From an uncultured beta proteobacterium (lineage in GTDB: Bacteria > Pseudomonadota > Gammaproteobacteria > Burkholderiales > SG8-39): a DNA stretch of 64,000 nucleotides. Location of the stretch: positions 987,304-1,051,303 of the forward strand of contig CAWEPV010000013.1 in NCBI GenBank assembly GCA_963811085.1, given 5' to 3'. Of this stretch, positions 5,887 through 56,262 are shown in pieces. A model generated the notes under the pieces. The model saw nothing but the letters and a program-made list of their open reading frames with translations, was not told the origin of the DNA and searched no databases. How positions within the stretch are numbered: position 1 is the first letter of the stretch; every line of letters starts with the position of its first letter. The translations under genes and the position numbers were made by a program.

Positions 5887-6008
5887 TCGCGCGTCCTGCC
5901 GGAGAGTGTGTAAAGGAATGATTTTAGCGTGAATCTCCGCGCGCGCGGAACCCGCCCGCCGCGCGTGGACTGGAGGGGCGAAAAGGACTATCCTTCGCGC
6001 CTCCCCGG

Positions 6009-6085
6009 GCGCCCGTAGCTCAGCTGGATAGAGTGTCGGTCTCCGAAGCCGAAGGTCGTGGGTTCGACTCCCGCCGGGCGCGCCA
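6009..6085 (+). tRNA. tRNA-Arg (anticodon CCG)
   Basis: Manual fold: acceptor GCGCCCG/CGGGCGC, D-arm GCTC..GAGT, anticodon stem TCGGT/GCCGA with loop CTCCGAA (anticodon CCG), T-arm GTGGG-TTCGACT-CCCGC, discriminator G and an encoded CCA. Confidence 0.85.
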
Positions 6086-6169
6086 GTCTCTTACGCAGCC
6101 GGACGCTTCACCGAGGCCTCTTATCTCGATGAAGCCGCAGGCTTTGCCCGGGTTCGACGTCAGATCGGT

Positions 6170-6940
6170 TCAGAGGCGTCGTCCGCGACCACGGCGCAAG
6201 AGCACGCTGAGTGTCAGACCAAGCGCGAGCGCGAGCAGCGTGAACAACACGCCGAACGCCACGGAGTGCCGCAGCGCCACGTGCGAGAGCCAGCGCTCGA
6301 TTCCGACCTCGTCCACCTGCAGGGTGCTCGTCCGATGCGCTTTCAGCGTGCCGTTGCGGAAGGAATAGATGTCGAGCTGATAGCGACCGATGGGCAGTGT
6401 CGCCGGGAGCGGAAAATTCGCCGAGAACAGCTGTCCCGCGTCGATCCGAACGCTGCCTTCGAGCTTGCGAAACAAGCCCTGTTTCCGCTTGAGGCGTTCG
6501 AGCGCGGCCTGCCAGTCCTGGTATCCGTCCGCAGGCTCGCCGACGATCTGCGCCGCGGCCAAGGTCGAGTGAAACGTCAAGCCGTGTCGCTCCAGCACGG
6601 AGCGATCGGCGATTTCATTCAACGCCCGGTTGCTTAGCAGGTAATCCAGCCCCGGCACGTGCTCGACGAGCAATTTGCCCCGTTTGAGCCAGAATGGCCC
6701 GACCCGTGCCTTGCGCGACAAGGCTACCGATTCATCCGGCGAGGTGACACGGATTACGATATCGCCGGAGCGCGGGGTGCTGCCGAACACGAATACATGT
6801 TGCCCGGTGAATCCCGTTGCGATCTTGATGTGGCTGCTCTCCAGATCCGTCAACAGGCCGGAATCCGCGCGCGCGCAGGTCAGCCCCGCGCTGCAGCACA
6901 ATGCCAGCGCCCATCCGAGCGCGCGCTGCAATCGGCTCAC
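6170..6940 (-). CDS. TIGR02186-family (Alph_Pro_TM-like) signal-peptide protein with a C-terminal membrane anchor, partner of TauE
   Basis: 256 aa with an N-terminal signal peptide and a C-terminal hydrophobic helix followed by RRGRGRRL. It overlaps the TauE gene by 4 nt. The family call is from memory of the TauE-associated conserved protein. Confidence 0.5.
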   Translation of the reverse strand: MSRLQRALGWALALCCSAGLTCARADSGLLTDLESSHIKIATGFTGQHVFVFGSTPRSGDIVIRVTSPDESVALSRKARVGPFWLKRGKLLVEHVPGLDYLLSNRALNEIADRSVLERHGLTFHSTLAAAQIVGEPADGYQDWQAALERLKRKQGLFRKLEGSVRIDAGQLFSANFPLPATLPIGRYQLDIYSFRNGTLKAHRTSTLQVDEVGIERWLSHVALRHSVAFGVLFTLLALALGLTLSVLLRRGRGRRL

Positions 6941-7854
6941 GTCCCGACCCCGGTCAGACTGTAGAGTTCCGCGGGCGTCGCCAGCAAATCGAACAGAAAC
7001 TTGATCGCCACCGCCAGCAGAATCAGCGCCAGCAGCAGGCGCAGCCGCTCACCCGGCAAGATCGAACTCATTCGCGCGCCCCACTGGGCGCCAAGGGCTG
7101 AGCCGAAAATCAGGGTCAGCGCCAAAATGGGATCCAGGGAGTGATTGATGCTCGCCTGCATGGTGCTCACCACCGCACTGGTGGCGAGCATCAATAGCAG
7201 CGAGGTGCCGATCGCAACCCTGGTGGGAACGCGCAACAGGTAGATCATCGCCGGCACTGCAACGAAACCGCCGCCCATGCCGAGAGCGTTGAGCACGCCG
7301 ATAAACGCGCCGAGCAGCAGAGGCAGCAGAACCGACATTCGTCGCCGCGCAACCTCGAACTCCATTTGGCCCGGCAACCACCCGAGCGGCCCGGCCTTCG
7401 GCACGGTCGCCGCGGGCGCACCGGCCGTCGCGGTCCGGTGGAATACCGCGCGAATCGACTCGGCGAAAGTGATGCTGCCGACGGTGCCTAGGATCGTGAT
7501 GTAAGTGAACACGACGATCGTGTCGAAGTGGCCGCCTTGCGCCAGAATCCGCGTCGCGTAGATGGCGCCGACGGCGGTGCTCCAGCTTCCGGCCAGCAAG
7601 GCAAGCCCCAAGCGCAGGTCCATGTTCCCGAGACGCCAATGCGAATAGCTCCCGGCGGCCGCGCTGCCCGCGATCAGCGCGGGGGTGGTGCCTACGGCGA
7701 TGAGCGGCGGCACGCCGCTGATCATCAGCAGCGGCGTGAGCAGGAAACCGCCGCCGACGCCGGTCAGGGCGGAGAGGCCACCAATGGAAACGCCGAACGC
7801 CAGAACCAACAGCAGGTTGACGTCCATGTGGGCAATGGGCAGAAAAATCTCCAC
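6937..7854 (-). CDS. TauE/SafE family sulfite/anion exporter (DUF81)
   Basis: Polytopic membrane protein with duplicated halves each carrying GxGGG motifs (GVGGGFLLTPLL and GMGGGFVAVPAM). The true start may be the internal Met (HMDVNLLL). Confidence 0.8.
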   Translation of the reverse strand: MEIFLPIAHMDVNLLLVLAFGVSIGGLSALTGVGGGFLLTPLLMISGVPPLIAVGTTPALIAGSAAAGSYSHWRLGNMDLRLGLALLAGSWSTAVGAIYATRILAQGGHFDTIVVFTYITILGTVGSITFAESIRAVFHRTATAGAPAATVPKAGPLGWLPGQMEFEVARRRMSVLLPLLLGAFIGVLNALGMGGGFVAVPAMIYLLRVPTRVAIGTSLLLMLATSAVVSTMQASINHSLDPILALTLIFGSALGAQWGARMSSILPGERLRLLLALILLAVAIKFLFDLLATPAELYSLTGVGT

Positions 7855-43020: not shown

Positions 43021-44148
43021 TCAAAGCGTATGCGACCGATCTCCGCGCGTAAAGCCCGCGAGCGGCTGCGCGACGCCGCGCCCCAGGGCAAGCACCTTGA
43101 ACAGCTCGCCCATTTCGGCCGGCGAAAGCAGCGTCTGCGCCTGCGCCGCGAGCGGGGCGTAGCGGCGCACATCCGCCGCGTCGACCTGCCCCAGAATGTC
43201 GGTCAGGCCGCAGTTGAGCAGGAAGTCGGCCTGCGAGGCGTAGCCGAGCACGTCCAGGTCGGCGTCGGCGGCGGCGTGGGCGAGCGCGCTGAAATCGACG
43301 TGCGCCGTGATGTCCTGCAGCCCCGGCAGGTAGAACGGATCGCCGTGCGCGCGGTGCCGGTAGTGGCACATCAGGGTGCCCATCGAGCGCTGCGGGTGGT
43401 AGTACTCGCGCGCCGGAAAGCCGTAGTCGACGATCAGGATGGCGCCCGCCTCGAGCATGCCGGCGAGCGCCGCGATCCACGCCCTGCCGGCCAGCCCGAG
43501 CTCGCTTTCGTAGCGCTCCGACGGCGGCAGCGCGATCTCGATCGCGCGCGCCGCGTCGAGCACCGCGCCCGCGGCCGGGCGCTCGCTCCAGGCGAGCATG
43601 CCTTCGTTGGCGCACACGCCGCGCTCGGCAATGCCGTTCCGGGTCCAGGCAACCGCGTGCACCGGCATCGCATCCAGCACTTCGTTTGCCAGCACCACGC
43701 CGCGGAAGCGCTCCGGCAGGCGCTCGAGCCAGCGCGCGCGAGCGCCGATGCGGTCGCGCTGGCGCCCGGCCAGCTCGGCGCTCGGCTCGACGATGAAGTA
43801 GGGCTGCCCCGCGGGCAGGGCGTCGAGCAGGGCGGCGGCGAGCGCGCCGCTGCCGGCACCGAACTCGAGGATCGCCGCACCGGGCTCGAGCAGCGCGGCG
43901 ACCTGGCGCGCGAGCGTGCGCCCGAACAGCGCACCCAGCTCCGGCGCGGTGACGAAGTCGCCCGCCGCGCCGAGCTTGGCCGCCCCGCCCGCGTAGTAGC
44001 CAAGGCCGGGCTGGTACAGCGCGAGCTCCATGTAGCGCGCGAAGCTGATCCAGTTGCGCCCGGCCGCGAGCTCGGCGCCGATGCGCTCCATCAGCGCGCG
44101 GCTCGCCGCGCGCGCCTGCGGGCCGGGTTCGGGCAGGGACGAATCCAT
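43021..44148 (-). CDS. MidA-type (DUF185) class I SAM-dependent methyltransferase
   Basis: 375 aa; ILEFGAGSGALAAALLDAL SAM-binding motif and MidA-like C-terminal region. Confidence 0.8.
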   Translation of the reverse strand: MDSSLPEPGPQARAASRALMERIGAELAAGRNWISFARYMELALYQPGLGYYAGGAAKLGAAGDFVTAPELGALFGRTLARQVAALLEPGAAILEFGAGSGALAAALLDALPAGQPYFIVEPSAELAGRQRDRIGARARWLERLPERFRGVVLANEVLDAMPVHAVAWTRNGIAERGVCANEGMLAWSERPAAGAVLDAARAIEIALPPSERYESELGLAGRAWIAALAGMLEAGAILIVDYGFPAREYYHPQRSMGTLMCHYRHRAHGDPFYLPGLQDITAHVDFSALAHAAADADLDVLGYASQADFLLNCGLTDILGQVDAADVRRYAPLAAQAQTLLSPAEMGELFKVLALGRGVAQPLAGFTRGDRSHTL

Positions 44149-44936: not shown

Positions 44937-45796
44937 CCGACCCGCGCAAAGCGAAGTACGAAGGCAACAAGCTCGCCAAGCGCCTGCGCCGCCAGGCGGG
45001 CGAGGCGATCGCCGACTTCGGCATGATCGAGGCGGGCGACCGGATCATGGTGTGCCTGTCGGGCGGCAAGGACAGCTACGGGCTGCTCGACGTGCTGCTC
45101 GCGCTGCGCGACAAGGCGCCGGTCGAGTTTGAACTGGTGGCGGTCAACCTGGACCAGAAGCAGCCCGGGTTTCCGGCGCGCGTGCTGCCCGAGTACCTGG
45201 CGGCGCGCGGCGTACCGTTCCGGATCGTCGAGCAGGACACCTACTCGGTGGTGAAGCGGCTGATCCCGGAGGGCCGCACGATGTGCTCGCTGTGCTCGCG
45301 GCTGCGGCGCGGCGCGCTGTATCGCGTGGCCGGTGAACTCGGCGCGACCAAGATCGCGCTCGGCCACCACCGCGACGACATCCTCGCAACTTTCTTTCTC
45401 AACCTGTTCTACGGCGGCAAGCTCAAGGCCATGCCGGCCAAGCTCGTTTCCGACGACGGGCGCCACGTCGTCATCCGGCCGCTGGCTTATGTCAGGGAAG
45501 ACGACCTCGCCGCCCACGCTGTCGCGCAGGACTTTCCGATAATTCCCTGTGTCCTGTGCGGCTCGCAGGAAAACCTGCAGCGGAAAGTCGTCCGCGGCAT
45601 GCTTTCCGAGTGGGAACAACGCTATCCGGGGCGCGTTGAATCCATTCTGCGCGCGCTGTCCGACGTGCGCCCTTCGCATCTTCTGGATCGCAAGCTGTTC
45701 GACTTCGTCGGACTGCGGGCTAAAGGAATCGCCGATCCTGACGGCGACACTGCTTTCGATCCGCAGTCACTCGAGCCGCTATTCAGCGACGCCTGA
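44933..45796 (+). CDS. ttcA: tRNA 2-thiocytidine(32) synthetase
   Basis: 287 aa; PP-loop CLSGGKDS and the CxxC cluster cysteines of TtcA. Confidence 0.9.
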
Positions 45797-50739: not shown

Positions 50740-52528
50740 GCGCCGCGCAGGCGAGGCGCTCGCGCTGCTGCGCCGGACCTTCGGCCACACGGAATTCCGC
50801 GGCGCGCAGGAAGACATCGTCGCGCACCTCGCCGCCGGCGGCGACGCGCTGGTGCTGATGCCGACCGGCGGCGGCAAGTCGCTTTGCTACCAGGTGCCCT
50901 CGCTGCTTCGCCCTGGCACCGGGGTCGTGGTTTCGCCGCTCATCGCCCTGATGCAGGACCAGGTGGCGGCGCTCAGGCAGCTGGGGGTGCGCGCGGCGTT
51001 CCTCAACTCGACCCAGGATGCGGCTGCGGCGCGAGAGGTCGAGCGCGCGCTGGTCGCAGGCGAGCTCGACTTGCTGTACGTCGCACCCGAGCGAGCGCTC
51101 ACGCCGCGCTGCCTCGAGCTGCTCGGGCGCAGCCGCATCGCCCTGTTCGCGATCGACGAGGCACACTGCGTGTCGCAGTGGGGGCACGATTTCCGTCCCG
51201 AGTACCTGCAGCTCTCGCTGCTGCACGAGCGCTTCCCGCAAGTCCCGCGCATCGCGCTCACCGCCACTGCCGACCCGCAGACGCGCGCCGAGATCGTCGC
51301 GCGCCTCGCGCTCGGGCAGGCACGGGTTTTCGTGTCGAGCTTCGACCGGCCCAATATTCGCTACGCAATCGTCGACAAGGTCGATCCGCGCGCGCAGCTG
51401 CTGGCGTTCATCCGCGAGGAGCACCCGGGCGAGGCCGGCATCGTGTACTGTCTCTCGCGGCGCAAGGTGGATGAGACCGCGGCCTGGCTCGCGACCCAGG
51501 GCCTTGCCGCGCTGCCCTATCACGCGGGCATGGCGGCCTCCGCGCGCACCGAGCACCAGGCGCGCTTCCAGCGCGAGGACGGAATCATCATGGTGGCGAC
51601 GATCGCCTTCGGCATGGGGATCGACAAGCCCGACGTGCGCTTCGTCGCCCACCTCGATCTGCCCAAGAGCATCGAGGGCTATTACCAGGAGACCGGGCGC
51701 GCCGGCCGCGACGGGCTGCCCGCGGACGCCTGGATGGCCTACGGCCTGGCCGATGTGGTGCAGCAGCGCCGGCTGATCGACCTGTCGGAGGCGAGCGAGG
51801 ACTACAAGCGGGTCTCCGGCGCCAAGCTCGACTCGCTGCTCGGGCTGTGCGAGACCGCCGGCTGCCGCCGGGTGCGCCTCTTGGCCTACTTCGGCGAGAC
51901 GAGCGGGCCCTGCGGCAACTGCGACACTTGCCTCGAACCGCCGCAGACCTGGGACGCGACCGACGCCGCGCGAAAGGCGCTGTCGGCGATCTACCGCACC
52001 GGACAGCGCTTCGGCGCGGTGCATCTGATCGACGTGCTGCGCGGCAAGCGCAACGAGCGCGTCGAACGCTGGGGGCACGAGGCGCTGGGCGTGTTTGGCG
52101 TCGGCGCGGAGCTCGACGAAGCAGCCTGGCGCAGCGTATTCCGGCAGCTCGTCGCCCTCGGCCTGGCGCGGGTCGACCACGACGCCCACGGCGCGCTCAG
52201 GCTGACCGAGGCGAGCCGGGCAGTGCTCAAGGGCGAGCAGGCGGTGCAGATGCGGCGCGTGGTGCCGCGCGCGGTGCGCCGCCCCCGCCGCGCCGCGCCG
52301 AGCGACGTCGCCCCGGCCGACGCGGGGCTGCTGCAGGTGCTCAAGGCCTGGCGGCGCGATGAAGCGCGCAGCCAGGGCGTGCCGGCGTACGTGATCCTGC
52401 ACGACAGCACCCTGGCCGAGATCGCCCGCGCGCGGCCGCGCGACCTCACCGCGCTCGCCGGCCTGGGTGGCATCGGCGCGAAGAAGCTCGAGCGCTACGG
52501 CGACGCGCTGCTGCACTTGATCAACTAG
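50729..52528 (+). CDS. recQ: ATP-dependent DNA helicase RecQ
   Basis: 599 aa; [23 protein letters not shown] Walker A, DEAH box, RQC and HRDC regions. Confidence 0.9.
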
Positions 52529-52532
52529 GGCT

Positions 52533-52560
52533 TGTCAAAGTAGTTTTGACAGCCTAGAAT
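52533..52560 (+). promoter_or_regulatory. Sigma70-type promoter TTGTCA-17-TAGAAT with an embedded perfect palindrome TGTCAAA-gtag-TTTGACA (operator candidate)
   Basis: -35 at 52533-52538 and -10 at 52555-52560. An 18-bp inverted repeat at 52534-52551 spans the spacer. The RBS AGGTAGAAG and the ATG at 52579 follow. Confidence 0.5.
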
Positions 52561-52578
52561 TTGGTTCAGGTAGAAGCC

Positions 52579-52839
52579 ATGAACTGCGCGGAGCAACTCG
52601 TCGTCCTATTCGGTAGCCAGGCCGACGTCGCGCGCGCATTCCAACTCGATCGCGCGGTGGTCAACAACTGGGTCAAGTCGGGCTACGTCCCGGCGCGCTG
52701 GGCGACAGAGGTCGAACGCGTGACCCAGGGCCGCATCACCGCGGTCGAAATCCTTACCGAGGCGAGCGCCAAGAAGCCGGTGCGCGTGAAATCGCGCCCC
52801 GACGACGCATCGTTCGGCATCCTGTCGGAGACTGAGCCC
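52579..52839 (+). CDS. Cro/CI-type HTH module (YdaS/DUF1019-like) reading through, without a stop codon, into the downstream aminotransferase frame
   Basis: MNCAEQLVVLFGSQADVARAFQLDRAVVNNWVKSGYVPARWATEVERVTQGRITAVEIL matches the YdaS-type Cro-like pattern (GSQ..LA..LGV...V..W...G.IP..R...IE..T.G). No in-frame stop was found before the ATG at 52840. Confidence 0.45.
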
Positions 52840-54079
52840 ATGAATACCTACGCACCGTCCAAGCGCATCCATTCGTTCCATCCGCCGCAGCGCACGCTGA
52901 TGGGCCCGGGGCCGACCGAGATTCACCCGCGCGTGCTCACCACCATGAGCCAGCCGGCGATCGGCTACCTCGACCCGATCTTCGTCGAGATGATGGAGGA
53001 GCTGAAGTCGCTGCTGCGCTACGTCTACCAGACCAAGAACCCGCTTACCTTCCCGATCTCGGGCCCGGGCTCGGTCGGGATGGAGTACTGCTTCGTCAAC
53101 CTGGTCGCGCCGGGAGACAAGGTGATCGTGTGCATCAACGGCGTGTTCGGCGGCCGCATGCTCGAGAACGTCATCCGCTGCGGCGGCGTTCCGGTGGTGG
53201 TCGAGGACAGGTGGGGCGAACCGGTCGATCCGCACAAGGTCGAGGATGCGCTGAAGAAGAACAAGGACGCCAAGATCGTCGCCTTCGTGCACGCCGAGAC
53301 CTCGACCGGCTGCCAGTCGGACGCGCAGGAGATCGCCCAGTGTCGCGCACAAGCACGGCGCGCTGGTCATCGTCGACGCGGTCACCTCGCTCGGCGGCAC
53401 GCCGGTGCGGGTCGACGAGTGGGAAATCGACGCGATCTATTCGGCCAGCCAGAAATGCCTGTCGTGCACGCCCGGCCTGTCGCCGGTGTCGTTCTCCGAG
53501 CGCGTGGTCGAACGCGTCAAGGCGCGCAAGGACAAGATCCACAGCTGGTTCATGGACATGAATTTGCTGCTGGGCTACTGGGGCGCCACCACCCGCACCT
53601 ACCACCACACAGCGCCCACCAATTCGCTGTTCGCGCTGCACGAGGCGCTGCTGCTGATCCGCGAGGAGGGGCTCGAGAACAGCTGGGCGCGCCACCACCG
53701 CCACCACGTCGCGCTCAAGTCGGGGCTCGAGGCGATGGGGCTGAAATTCCTGGTCAAAGAGGAATACCAGCTGCCGCAGATGAACGCGGTGCTGTGCCCG
53801 GAGGGCGTGAACGAGGCCGACGTGAGGAAGACCCTGCTGGGCGAATTCGGCATCGAGATCGGCGCCGGGCTCGGGCCGCTCGCGGGCAAGATCTGGCGCT
53901 TCGGCCTGATGGGCTACTCGTGCCGGCCGGACAACGTGATGCTGTGCCTGTCGGCGCTAGGCTCGGTGCTCGAGGACATGGGCCTGCCGGTGCACGTCGG
54001 CGACGCGGAAGCCGCGGCGCACGGCGCCTACGCCAGAATGCACGCGAGCGACGCGCAGCGCAAGAAACGCGCCGCCTGA
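52840..54079 (+). pseudogene. Alanine-glyoxylate / serine-pyruvate aminotransferase (class V, AGXT-like), disrupted by a frameshift near 53340-53350
   Basis: The N-part in frame 1 (MNTYAPSKRIHSFHPPQRTLMGPGPTEIHPRVL...HAETSTGCQSDAQEIAQ) and the C-part in frame 2 (HKHGALVIVDAVTSLGGTPVRVDEWEIDAIYSASQKCL...) each align along AGXT. The junction lies at cagtgtcgcgcacaagcacggc. Confidence 0.8.
54010..54078 (+). repeat. Copy A of a ~70-bp imperfect direct repeat (last 22 codons of the aminotransferase)
   Basis: gccgcggcgcacggcgcctacgccagaatgcacgcgagcgacgcgcagcgcaagaaacgcgccgcc recurs at 60325-60395 with a few substitutions (both encode AAHGAYA.MHASDAQRKKRAA). Confidence 0.6.
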
Positions 54080-54083
54080 GGGC

Positions 54084-54260
54084 CTAAAGCCCCGGGCGCT
54101 GCCAGATGGTGCTCGTCGGGCCGGCCTGGTTGAGCGTGTAGAAGTGCAGCCCGGTGCGCCGCCGCTGAGCAGGCGGTCGCACAGCTCGGTGACGACGTCG
54201 AGGCCGAAGGCGCGCATCGATGCGCTGTCGTCGCGGAAGCTCTCGAGCTTGAAGCGCATC
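54084..54260 (-). pseudogene. metF: 3'-terminal fragment of a methylenetetrahydrofolate reductase (metF) gene, itself frameshifted
   Basis: Minus-strand pieces IPRWMRFKLESFRDDSASMRAFGLDVVTELCDRLLSGG and GLHFYTLNQAGPTSTIWQRPGL* match the MetF C-terminus (IPAWM...; DFHFYTLNRAE...GL*). No upstream MetF body is present. Confidence 0.7.
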
Positions 54261-54366
54261 CAGCGCGGGATCTCGGCGCCGCGGGCGCGCTGGAGTCGTG
54301 CACGTCAATGCAGTACAGTGTCTGCCGTCTCGGGCGACACATCGGGCCGGATAAGCGCCAGCAAGC

Positions 54367-56262
54367 ATGACCGAAGACGGCTATCCTGACGCGCTGCCGC
54401 GCGGGTACCACCTGCACTGGTACCTGCTCGAGCGGGTGCTGGGGCAGGGCGGCTTCGGCATCACCTATCTGGCGCGCGACACCAACCTCGATCAGCGCGT
54501 CGCGATCAAGGAATATCTCCCGATCGACGTCGCCACGCGCCGCAACGACGCGACCGTGCGCGCGCGCACCGAGGCGCACGACGAGCGCTACCGCTGGGGG
54601 CTCGAGAGGTTCATCCGCGAGGCCCGCACGCTGGCGCGCTTCGACCACCCAAATGTCGTGCGCGTGCTCTCGGTGTTCGAGTTCAACAACACCGCCTACA
54701 TGGTGATGCGCTTCGAGGAGGGCAGCAACCTCGCCACCATCCTCGAGCAGCGCGGCACGCTGCCGGAAGGCGAGTTGCTGCGCATCCTGCTGCCGATCCT
54801 CGACGGGCTCGAGCTGGTGCACAACGCGGGGTTCATCCACCGCGACATCAAGCCGGACAACATCCACGTGCGCGCCGACGGTAGCCCGGTACTGCTCGAT
54901 TTTGGCTCCGCGCGCCAGCCCGTGGGCCATTCGCCCAGCTTGACCATCCTGGTCGCCCCCGGCTACGCGCCGTTCGAGCAGTACTACAGCAGCGGCGAGA
55001 GCCAGGGTCCGTGGAGCGACATATACGGGCTTGGGGCGACTTGCTACCGCGCCATCTGCGGCACGCCGCCGATGGACGCGATCGCACGCAGCAAGGGCGT
55101 CCTCGGCAGCGCGCGCGACGTGCTGGCGCCCGCAACCGCGGTCGGCGCGGGACGCTATTCGCCGCGCCTGCTCAAGGCGATCGATCACGCGCTCGAATTT
55201 ACCGAGCGCGATCGCCCGCAGAGCATCGCCGAATGGCGTCGGGAGCTGCTCGGCGAAGGGCAGCAGGCCGCGCTGGCGCCAGCCGCGCCGTCCGCGGCCG
55301 CGGCGCGCAGCGAGCGGCCAGCCCCCGCCTCCGGCGGAGGCTGGCCGGTTTTCCGTACGGTCCTGGCTGCGGCGGTGGCGCTCGTCGTGGTGGCCGTGCT
55401 GCTGCGTTTCTATCCGTTCTCGGGCGGTGGCAAGAGCGGGCCGCCGCCCGAGACCGCGCCCGATCCTGCAGCGCAGCTCAAGGAACGACTCGCTAAGGTC
55501 GAGCAGCAGCTCGCCGAGGAGCGGCAGCGGCAGGCCGAGGCGCTCGCGCAGCAGCAGGCGGAGGAGCGCCAGCGCGTGGAGGCGGAGCGCAAGCGCGCAT
55601 TCGAGGCCGAAGCCGCGCGTAAACGCGAGGCGGAGCAAAAGAAGCTTGCCGAGGAGCGCCAGCGCAAGCTCGCGCAGCAGGCGGAGGCCGAGCGCAAGCG
55701 CCAGGCGGAGCAAAAGAAGCATGCCGAGGAGCGCCAGCGCAAGCTCGCGCAGCAGGCGGAGGCCGAGCGCAAACGGGCTGAGCAGCAGGCTCGCCAGCAG
55801 GCAGTCCAAAGCGCGAAGCCAGCCGCAGCGCCTCCGAGCTCGGCCGCGCTGCTGGAGAAGGCCGACCGCGACTACACCGCCGGCAACTACGCCGAAGCGC
55901 TTGCGGCGCTCAAGCCGCTGGCCGCGCGCGGCAACGCCAACGCCCAGCTCAGGCTCGGCAAGTCCTACGCGGAGGGGCACGGCGTTGCGCACGACGACGC
56001 GCGCGCGGCGATCTGGTATCGGAAGGCCGCGTTGCAGGGCAACCCGGAGGCGCAGTTGCAGCTCGGCGAGCTGTACGCGAGCGGGCGCGGCGTGCCGCAT
56101 AGCGATTTCGAGGCTTATGTGTGGTTGACCGCTGCGGTCCGCGGCGGCAACGCGGCGGCCAAGGCGCTGCAGGGGCGTGTCGCGAAGTTGCTGCAGCCTG
56201 TCGAAGCCGAGCAAGCGGGCAAGCTGGTGACCAATCTGCCGCTCCCCGACGCCGCCAAGTAA
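54367..56262 (+). CDS. Ser/Thr protein kinase with a single TM, a coiled-coil repeat region and C-terminal Sel1/TPR-like repeats
   Basis: Hanks kinase motifs GQGGFGITYLA, VAIKEY, HRDIKPDNI, DFGSA and APGYAPFEQ. TM segment VLAAAVALVVVAVLL. Repeats AEERQRKLAQQAEAERKR. Sel1-like region YRKAALQGNPEAQLQLGELYASGRGV. Confidence 0.85.
   Translation: MTEDGYPDALPRGYHLHWYLLERVLGQGGFGITYLARDTNLDQRVAIKEYLPIDVATRRNDATVRARTEAHDERYRWGLERFIREARTLARFDHPNVVRVLSVFEFNNTAYMVMRFEEGSNLATILEQRGTLPEGELLRILLPILDGLELVHNAGFIHRDIKPDNIHVRADGSPVLLDFGSARQPVGHSPSLTILVAPGYAPFEQYYSSGESQGPWSDIYGLGATCYRAICGTPPMDAIARSKGVLGSARDVLAPATAVGAGRYSPRLLKAIDHALEFTERDRPQSIAEWRRELLGEGQQAALAPAAPSAAAARSERPAPASGGGWPVFRTVLAAAVALVVVAVLLRFYPFSGGGKSGPPPETAPDPAAQLKERLAKVEQQLAEERQRQAEALAQQQAEERQRVEAERKRAFEAEAARKREAEQKKLAEERQRKLAQQAEAERKRQAEQKKHAEERQRKLAQQAEAERKRAEQQARQQAVQSAKPAAAPPSSAALLEKADRDYTAGNYAEALAALKPLAARGNANAQLRLGKSYAEGHGVAHDDARAAIWYRKAALQGNPEAQLQLGELYASGRGVPHSDFEAYVWLTAAVRGGNAAAKALQGRVAKLLQPVEAEQAGKLVTNLPLPDAAK
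55631..55780 (+). repeat. Two tandem 75-bp coding repeats (~96% identical) inside the kinase gene
   Basis: gcggagcaaaagaagc(t/a)tgccgaggagcgccagcgcaagctcgcgcagcaggcggaggccgagcgcaa... occurs twice back to back, giving AEQKK(L/H)AEERQRKLAQQAEAERKR twice. Confidence 0.8.

Follow-up and report, generated by a model that had tools for sequence, protein, structure and literature searches.

A conserved single-gene fusion of a Cro/YdaS-type DNA-binding domain and an AGXT-type aminotransferase, with an operator candidate in its own promoter, in uncultured Burkholderiales

Here, we describe a gene in a 64,000-nucleotide stretch of an uncultured betaproteobacterial genome (assembly GCA_963811085.1, contig CAWEPV010000013.1, positions 987,304 to 1,051,303; Burkholderiales, SG8-39), hereafter the window, whose own numbering is used below unless a related locus is named. 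Our preferred reading, to which we give a probability of about 0.7, is that a helix-turn-helix (HTH) domain of the Cro/YdaS type, a short linker and a class V aminotransferase of the AGXT type form one conserved gene for an autorepressing fusion of enzyme and transcription factor, and that the copy in the window is broken by one base. An earlier reading of the same DNA, made by a model from the letters and open reading frames (ORFs) without database searches (the sequence-only reading), had noticed that the HTH runs without a stop into the Met of the aminotransferase and had offered two explanations, namely that HTH and class V aminotransferase form a fusion not seen before or that a small regulator gene has lost its stop. 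The run-on is borne out: the ATG at 52579 opens 87 stop-free codons (52579-52839) that continue in frame into the ATG at 52840. The elements of the locus are as follows.

52532..52537, plus strand: -35-like hexamer TTGTCA from the promoter scan, which doubles as the outer part of the left half-site of the operator candidate.
52533..52551, strand-less: palindromic operator candidate TGTCAAA-GTAGT-TTTGACA, a 19-bp inverted repeat of 7+5+7.
52555..52560, plus strand: -10-like hexamer TAGAAT from the promoter scan, after a 17-nt spacer behind TTGTCA.
52579..52773, plus strand: predicted all-alpha HTH of the Cro/YdaS type, residues 1-65, five helices (Pfam, AlphaFold2 model, fold matches, dN/dS).
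52774..52839, plus strand: C-terminal tail of the HTH (..KKPVRVKSRP) and variable acidic linker, residues 66-87, stop-free (alignment; in-frame indels).
52827..52831, plus strand: Shine-Dalgarno-like GGAGA, candidate internal ribosome-binding site, 9 nt upstream of the junction ATG.
52840..52842, plus strand: junction ATG (Met88), the ancestral and possibly still used start of the aminotransferase (Met in 81 of 81 loci).
52840..53340, plus strand: N-terminal part of the aminotransferase, residues 88-254, in the same frame as the HTH.
53341..53341, plus strand: single extra base T (alignment with related loci L001-L004 and L008).
53342..54079, plus strand: C-terminal part of the aminotransferase, 245 codons and TGA, in the +1 frame relative to the upstream part (Pfam Aminotran_5).

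Comparison with relatives carries the case for a genuine fusion. Using residues 1-254 as the protein query, which span the HTH and linker and reach 167 residues into the enzyme, we found the YdaS/Cro Pfam domain on this aminotransferase N-terminus in all of the best 120 clusters, with 72-97% identity and a query coverage of 85-100%. A scan with one genome per species returned at least 311 relatives; locus counts given below rest on the best 80 of these, or on 81 sequences when the window is included. Each of the 80 loci comes from a different species and matches HTH, linker and enzyme N-terminus (query residues 1-3 to 247-254), so that the HTH-linker-AGXT arrangement that the sequence-only reading had proposed to look for in other genomes is present in every one. 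All 80 are metagenome-assembled genomes (MAGs) labelled Burkholderiales or Betaproteobacteria, with a few evident mislabels. The earlier reading had also named relatives with a stop codon between HTH and aminotransferase and an unbroken aminotransferase frame as evidence against it: a stop in the linker occurs in none of the 81 sequences, whereas the enzyme frame is indeed unbroken in 69 of the 70 ORFs that are complete, i.e., that reach a stop (496-507 aa). The sole truncated one, in L031 (MAG MFD02840, gene at ~6001-7203), has 400 aa instead of ~500. The linker differs in length by whole codons only, and the ratio of nonsynonymous to synonymous substitution rates (dN/dS; pairwise Nei-Gojobori, 300 pairs) amounts to 0.17, 0.30 and 0.15 in HTH, linker and enzyme, respectively. 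The absence of stops, the in-frame indels, the intact ORFs and these ratios together argue that the HTH is translated and under selection, that the linker is coding and that the arrangement is old and maintained. On this comparative evidence, the fusion is a real, conserved single gene of uncultured Burkholderiales/Betaproteobacteria, and the family is widespread in an uncultured clade. Of the two explanations offered before, the unseen fusion is thus upheld by a single-frame arrangement in 81 of 81 loci with purifying selection on HTH, linker and enzyme, and the loss of a stop in this particular genome is rejected on the same observations.

The N-terminal domain had been called a Cro/YdaS-type regulator from its letters, and profile searches agree. 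Residues 1-58 match Pfam YdaS_toxin (PF15943, 40.3 bits, cut-off 30) as well as P22_Cro (PF14549, 31.7 bits, cut-off 30.2), both above their cut-offs. When modelled alone with AlphaFold2 (42 homologues), the domain is predicted to form five helices with a predicted local distance difference test score (pLDDT) of 89. The best fold match of this model among solved structures is the Cro protein of Xfaso-1 (3bd1; template modelling (TM) scores 0.73/0.85, root-mean-square deviation 1.4 A over 61 residues), followed by N15 Cro, P22 Cro and YdaS; no match to the HTH region was found in a PDB sequence search. Foldseek E-values are marginal (best 3e-3), as is usual for a domain of 65 residues, and the assignment to the Cro fold therefore rests on the TM-scores and the Pfam matches. 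By sequence and predicted fold, the domain is of the Cro/YdaS type.

A full scan of 1.8 billion representative proteins returned 186 relatives of the HTH at E up to 1e-3. Roughly the first fifty (at least 54% identity) are fragments of the fusion family or its 503-aa representative P0130, and the others are stand-alone proteins of 60-100 aa with at most 47% identity. The closest stand-alone relative, P0168 (84 aa, 47% identity), is encoded at 1707-1961 of locus L081 and 566-820 of locus L082 and ends right past the tail KNPPRFKTRP, which KKPVRVKSRP in the fusion matches. Its neighbours are a series of small genes on the same strand, all lacking Pfam hits, which gives the setting a phage-like look, and the region upstream of P0168 holds repeated GTAAACGT elements, not the TGTCAA palindrome. 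We did not find an unfused ancestral arrangement (cro-like gene, stop, aminotransferase gene) among these relatives, and P0168 does not lie beside an aminotransferase; even so, the fusion may well have originated, long ago, from the loss of a stop. Short HTH matches of high identity (>65%) that appear to stand alone were considered as unfused genes and rejected, being contig-end, chimeric or frameshifted fragments of the fusion family. Many database fragments of the family, among public metagenome predictions, are assembly artefacts (P0001, P0095, P0123-P0132): P0001 is a hairpin chimera whose tail is antisense to its own gene, P0132 runs out into adaptor-like sequence, and both P0095 and P0006 have a frameshift close to the C-terminus. 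The ~500-aa fusion proteins themselves are publicly named 'aminotransferase class V-fold PLP-dependent enzyme', AGXT-type transaminase or 'YdaS family HTH protein', generic names that hide the fusion architecture from annotation-based surveys.

The enzyme part is a class V aminotransferase (Aminotran_5, PF00266; 79.9 bits on the intact orthologue in L004), which substantiates the earlier assignment to the AGXT type. A search with the L004 orthologue gave the Nostoc alanine-glyoxylate aminotransferase 1vjo as the nearest relative of known structure (E 4e-102, residues 98-464), and homology extends over the full length of the enzyme (residues 98-464 or 98-484) to 1vjo, PucG (3isl), ureidoglycine-glyoxylate aminotransferase (3nnk) and human AGT (1h0c). 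The junction Met lies 10 residues ahead of the first residue that aligns to these stand-alone AGT structures. The SxSQK motif with the lysine that binds pyridoxal 5'-phosphate (PLP) is present in 69 of 69 relatives and in the window, where it reads SASQK (53441-53455) with the lysine codon AAA at 53453-53455; W[RK]xGxMG is found in 68 of 69 relatives, and the counts for the two motifs W[RK]xGxMG and TYHHT are 68-69 of 69. With its catalytic motifs fully kept, the enzyme domain appears to be active. The score of the class I family Aminotran_1_2 is marginal (20.2 bits). None of the NCBIfam equivalog cut-offs is reached, the best score being that of BhcA (217 bits against 650), and pyridoxamine-pyruvate transaminase reaches 206 against a cut-off of 600.

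The sequence-only reading had placed a frameshift in the aminotransferase at ~53345, and alignment with five relatives (L001-L004 and L008) indeed reveals one extra T at 53341, in the context CAG-T-GTC. Removing it restores an intact protein of 499 aa that ends in RKKRAA. Past this position, the 245 codons in the correct frame are free of stops, with a G+C content at third codon positions (GC3) of 0.935 and, in comparison with six relatives, a dN/dS of 0.10-0.16, as in the part upstream. Because the sequence downstream bears no decay, the shift must be an error or very young: by these comparisons, it reflects either a mistake in sequencing or assembly or an inactivating mutation of very recent date. 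Since 69 of 70 complete relatives are intact, it is peculiar to the window sequence and not a property of the gene, and it should not be read as a feature of the latter. An ORF of 508 aa at 52561-54087 was also considered and rejected as an artefact, as it is out of frame for 248 codons past 53341 and stops are rare at such G+C.

If the extra base is real, the gene would be a recently inactivated pseudogene here, and only the HTH with a truncated, inactive stump of the enzyme would be made. We allow this a considerable chance, though one clearly short of even. The base lies outside any homopolymer; a truncated remnant of metF with a frameshift of its own follows 8 nt downstream of the fusion gene, so that this stretch did undergo real decay or rearrangement; and recQ, panB and a kinase-like ORF are unbroken while ttcA aligns in one piece, which argues against a generally error-prone sequence. 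The unaltered codons downstream of the shift and the intact copies among relatives weigh the other way and, if the mutation is real, make it very young. A programmed frameshift was rejected, given that 53341 has no slippery sequence and that relatives lack the extra base.

Upstream of the gene, recQ ends at 52528 and a promoter-like site starts four bases on. TTGTCA-17-TAGAAT (52532-52560), already singled out as a textbook promoter, is the sole sigma-70-like site in 52000-54600 and agrees with the consensus at 10 of 12 positions; shuffled sequences yield 0.3 such sites. The 'perfect 18-bp palindrome' reported in its spacer needs correction: the element has 19 bp (TGTCAAAGTAGTTTTGACA), with perfect 7-nt arms (TGTCAAA / TTTGACA) around a non-palindromic 5-nt centre, and it overlaps the -35 hexamer as well as the spacer. 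In a single sequence, such a promoter and palindrome would be weak evidence; their significance comes from their conservation in 81 of 81 homologous promoters. We aligned the 130 nt upstream of the start codon of all 81 sequences. TTGTCAA occurs in 81/81, and seven bases past it the right half-site TTGACA is kept with TTG in 81/81, A in 77/81, C in 81/81 and the last A in 68/81. Three bases past the right half-site comes a -10 pattern TAnnnT (T1 77/81, A2 80/81, T6 79/81). The centre of the palindrome is variable except for a symmetric T/A pair (inner positions T9 and A11), giving a family consensus of TGTCAA(A)nTnAn(T)TTGACA. The full pattern occurs once in the 64-kb window (0 expected), and the core TGTCAA-N7-TTGAC occurs only at the promoter of the fusion gene within 792 kb of related loci (~10 kb per genome). 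Sigma-70 promoters have no sequence requirement in the spacer, and the near-invariance of the right half-site within it is therefore real evidence for a protein-binding site. The operator candidate follows the gene although the neighbourhood differs between species, as fits autoregulation, and, because it covers the -35 hexamer and the spacer, the expected effect of binding is repression. Autorepression, which the sequence-only reading had expected, thus gains strength from phylogenetic footprinting while still being something we infer. In 11 loci (L010, L019, L023, L031, L038, L040, L043, L045, L058, L067 and L071), we noticed another common motif, rich in GGTAC...GTAC (e.g., CAGATGGTAC-N-GTA-N-GGTACA), 40-90 nt upstream of the fusion promoter and beside the apparent start of a divergent gene; it may be the operator of another regulator.

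Most loci (66 of 81) have an ATG or GTG in frame 6-10 nt past the -10 element, that is, where transcription should begin, suggesting that the long protein is made from a leaderless or nearly leaderless mRNA; from these positions, a leaderless mRNA is probable in most species. Among all predicted start codons, 65 are ATG and 16 GTG. The junction Met is present in 81 of 81 sequences despite variable neighbouring linker residues, and 9-12 nt ahead of it lie GGAG-, GGGAG- or AGGA-like sequences, a Shine-Dalgarno-like element that is kept across the amino-acid contexts SE, PE, AE, TE, QE, GS and PG. Predicted pairing with the 3' end of 16S rRNA is stronger at the junction Met (median -6.6 kcal/mol) than at the remaining internal Met codons (-3.0), and pairing of -6 or stronger is reached at 61% of junction sites but 6% of the others. 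Gly codons at the position of the junction Shine-Dalgarno element are GGG or GGA in 14 of 14 cases, compared with 19% elsewhere in the gene. The strength of this element, the conserved Met and the Gly-codon bias suggest that an internal ribosome-binding site is being selected for in the nucleotide sequence itself, and the enzyme is probably also made on its own from the junction start.

Taken together, the preferred reading would work as follows. The ~500-aa product comprises an all-alpha Cro/YdaS HTH (~65 aa), followed by a flexible linker (~20 aa) and then by a complete class V aminotransferase of the AGXT type (fold type I). AGXT enzymes form obligate homodimers, and all-alpha Cro proteins occupy their palindromic sites in dimeric form; since the enzyme body is expected to dimerize, it could hold two HTH domains together. 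So paired, these may bind the palindrome TGTCAAA-N5-TTTGACA over the -35 hexamer and spacer and repress transcription of their own gene, a form of autoregulation that the footprinting makes more credible. The enzyme part might then couple DNA binding to substrate or to the state of its cofactor, PLP or pyridoxamine 5'-phosphate (PMP), in the way of a 'trigger enzyme' and similarly to MocR/GabR or PutA; that substrate or PLP/PMP state modulates DNA binding is speculative, and a tuning of repression by the ratio of long to short isoforms is speculative as well. Combining these ideas, one can conceive of a self-titrating trigger enzyme with two isoforms from the same mRNA, the long form made inefficiently from the leaderless start and the short one from the internal Shine-Dalgarno element and ATG, with their ratio and the substrate or PLP state of the enzyme setting repression. 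Only dimers of two long subunits would carry two HTH heads and bind the operator, and short subunits would dilute them into one-headed heterodimers. We regard this extension as tentative and rather doubtful; if true, this kind of autoregulation would have no known precedent among PLP enzymes or Cro-type repressors.

Several observations weigh against the preferred reading or its extension. All relatives come from MAGs, and the 81 sequences are mutually related (75-93% identity), so that the counts and the Mann-Whitney p-value overstate their independence. The full-length AlphaFold2 model is poor (mean pLDDT 57, with the aminotransferase part largely <50 and a low pLDDT in the linker), was unused for fold searches and gives nothing on how the HTH is placed upon the enzyme dimer. 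The neighbourhood offers no clue to the substrate. As for leaderless translation, GTG is a poor leaderless start in E. coli, and it is the predicted start in 16 of 81 loci; in the window, the -10 element lies 18 nt from the ATG, so that the mRNA is not leaderless here, and the nearest relatives have 18 nt or more. The Shine-Dalgarno element and ATG at the junction may persist from the ancestral enzyme gene as a relic in slow decay. Finally, the conservation of TTGTCA could partly reflect its role as a -35 hexamer, which would make the right half-site the sole independent evidence for an operator, and the palindrome could serve a different regulator.

The last two points lead to the alternative that the fusion is real and the palindrome is no more than part of the promoter or belongs to a different regulator, with the HTH acting elsewhere or in another role. 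The left half-site coincides with the -35 hexamer, and our motif survey covered ~10 kb per genome, so that further copies of the motif elsewhere in the genomes are possible. Set against this are the near-invariant right half-site within the spacer (TTG and C in every sequence), the symmetry of the inner T9 and A11, and the fact that the site accompanies the gene across differing neighbourhoods; we consider this alternative unlikely. Far less probable still is an accidental read-through, in which a Cro-like regulator lost its stop in this genome and runs into an unrelated aminotransferase as a functionless fusion. The junction does keep an ATG with a Shine-Dalgarno-like element, which shows that the enzyme was at one time, or is even now, a cistron in its own right, and stand-alone HTH relatives end just past a KSRP-like tail. 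Yet the identical stop-less arrangement occurs in 81 of 81 loci, including 80 other species, with in-frame indels and a dN/dS of 0.30 in the linker and with 69 of 70 complete copies intact, so that any stop-loss event would be ancient and maintained by selection. We give almost no weight to the idea that the palindrome acts at the RNA level, as a hairpin terminator of the upstream recQ, or that the frameshift is programmed. The palindrome region can fold (-13.9 kcal/mol), but the z-score of the fold is only -1.6, there is no U-tract, terminator-like site or Rfam match, and the upstream gene varies between species while the palindrome stays; a programmed shift is at odds with the lack of a slippery sequence at 53341 and with relatives that do not have the extra base.

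The sequence-only reading had further suggested that the promoter and HTH segment is lower in G+C than its surroundings and hence of foreign origin. The first part holds only for the 50-nt intergenic promoter (G+C 0.44), as the HTH coding sequence (0.653) equals the aminotransferase (0.65-0.68; window mean 0.683). GC3 is 0.85 in the HTH versus 0.93 in the enzyme in the window, and relatives show a similarly small gap (0.88 versus 0.92). We therefore rejected a foreign origin on these grounds, given that HTH and enzyme are equal in G+C and only the 50-nt intergenic stretch is AT-rich; base composition provides no usable evidence for a recent foreign origin of the HTH segment.

Synteny is only partly conserved: the genes directly beside the fusion gene, which has a promoter of its own, vary from species to species. 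Because the ORF caller used for the neighbourhoods is crude and yields many GC-rich shadow ORFs (clusters c1, c2 and c9), only real-looking protein clusters were used. Among the 80 related loci, we found no conserved operon partners that hint at a pathway. Neighbours in the window are housekeeping genes (recQ, panB, ttcA and metF), with no phage genes nearby, and recQ adjoins the fusion gene only here. Three genes turn up repeatedly on the upstream side, in 37-52 of the 80 loci, namely ttcA, a DUF-like gene (~50 loci, as for ttcA) and a methyltransferase: ttcA (window 44939-45793, plus strand) in 51 of 80 relatives and a DUF185-type methyltransferase-like gene (window 43024-44094, minus strand) in 37 of 80. 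In the window, ~7 kb that include panB and recQ lie between these genes and the fusion gene. A minority of loci have metF (14 loci) or ahcY (18 loci), which are convergent downstream in the inspected L003, L004 and L008.

In these three loci, a complete metF and then ahcY follow the fusion gene convergently. The remnant of metF in the window (54087-54301, minus strand) covers residues 206-277 of 277 only and has its frameshift near 54150, and in L001 the remnant is gone and a kinase-like gene comes directly after the fusion gene. By comparison with these loci, the layout points to a deletion or rearrangement at ~54301-54366 in the lineage of the window. Adjoining the remnant is a Ser/Thr-kinase-like ORF of 631 aa (54367-56262, plus strand) with low-complexity repeats of the AEERQRK/AEQKK type, where the AT skew is strongly positive (55475-55850), and with a C-terminus that carries Sel1/TPR-like repeats.

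To our knowledge, the known transcription factors with a PLP fold (MocR/GabR/PdxR) all pair a winged helix of the GntR type with a sensor that resembles class I aminotransferases and has mostly lost catalysis. They consist of an N-terminal DNA-binding domain, a flexible linker and a dimerizing aminotransferase body of the PLP fold, and they typically control themselves and/or their neighbours via repeated DNA sites, the enzyme fold serving as effector sensor (PMC6677901). The fusion described here resembles them in having a DNA-binding N-terminus linked flexibly to a PLP-fold aminotransferase body. It differs in that its HTH is of the predicted all-alpha Cro/YdaS type instead of a GntR winged HTH (we found no GntR Pfam match in the fusion protein), in that its enzyme, which matches a genuine alanine-glyoxylate aminotransferase at a level near 50% identity, is class V and AGXT-like instead of a class I, aspartate-aminotransferase-like sensor, and in that its catalytic motifs are fully kept and its putative target is a single 19-bp palindrome in its own promoter. 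The earlier description of a MocR analogue on a different fold is thus fair as a functional analogy but not as family membership: since HTH class and aminotransferase class both differ, the fusion is a functional analogue of MocR/GabR and not a member of that family.

The HTH itself belongs by Pfam and predicted five-helix fold with P22 Cro, N15 Cro, Xfaso-1 Cro and YdaS of Rac/CP-933P, and YdaS is a Cro analogue that binds operators (PMC8630535). All-alpha Cro proteins of phages and prophages bind palindromic operators that overlap promoters, and here a conserved palindrome overlaps the -35 hexamer and spacer, which the HTH would bind. In contrast to these stand-alone, self-dimerizing proteins of 60-100 aa from prophage immunity regions, the domain forms the N-terminus of a chromosomal metabolic enzyme and is fused to 413 aa of enzyme in 81 of 81 loci. 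On the enzyme side, homology to the solved AGXT relatives (1vjo, 3isl, 3nnk and 1h0c) is full-length, with the PLP lysine and other motifs conserved, whereas no solved relative has an N-terminal DNA-binding domain.

Fusions of enzyme and transcription factor ('trigger enzymes') as such are known from PutA, BirA and NadR. BzdR likewise joins an XRE HTH to a shikimate-kinase-like domain (PMC3602430). As in these proteins, an enzyme would here have recruited a DNA-binding domain so that the state of a metabolite controls transcription, although both partner domains are other than a Cro/YdaS HTH and a class V aminotransferase. Full-text literature searches returned no published description of a Cro/YdaS-aminotransferase fusion within the library covered. 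While the principle is known, the domain pair, the sharply conserved operator candidate and the possible two-isoform design make the family a good experimental target, and with one gene, one putative operator and no conserved partner genes it is a clean study system, which can show how an enzyme gains a regulatory function and how a prophage regulator is domesticated. Next to MocR/GabR/PdxR, the family would represent a second, convergent route to coupling amino-acid or keto-acid metabolism with transcription, in which a phage-type Cro domain was joined independently to a class V enzyme that still looks catalytic and has an operator candidate in its own promoter.

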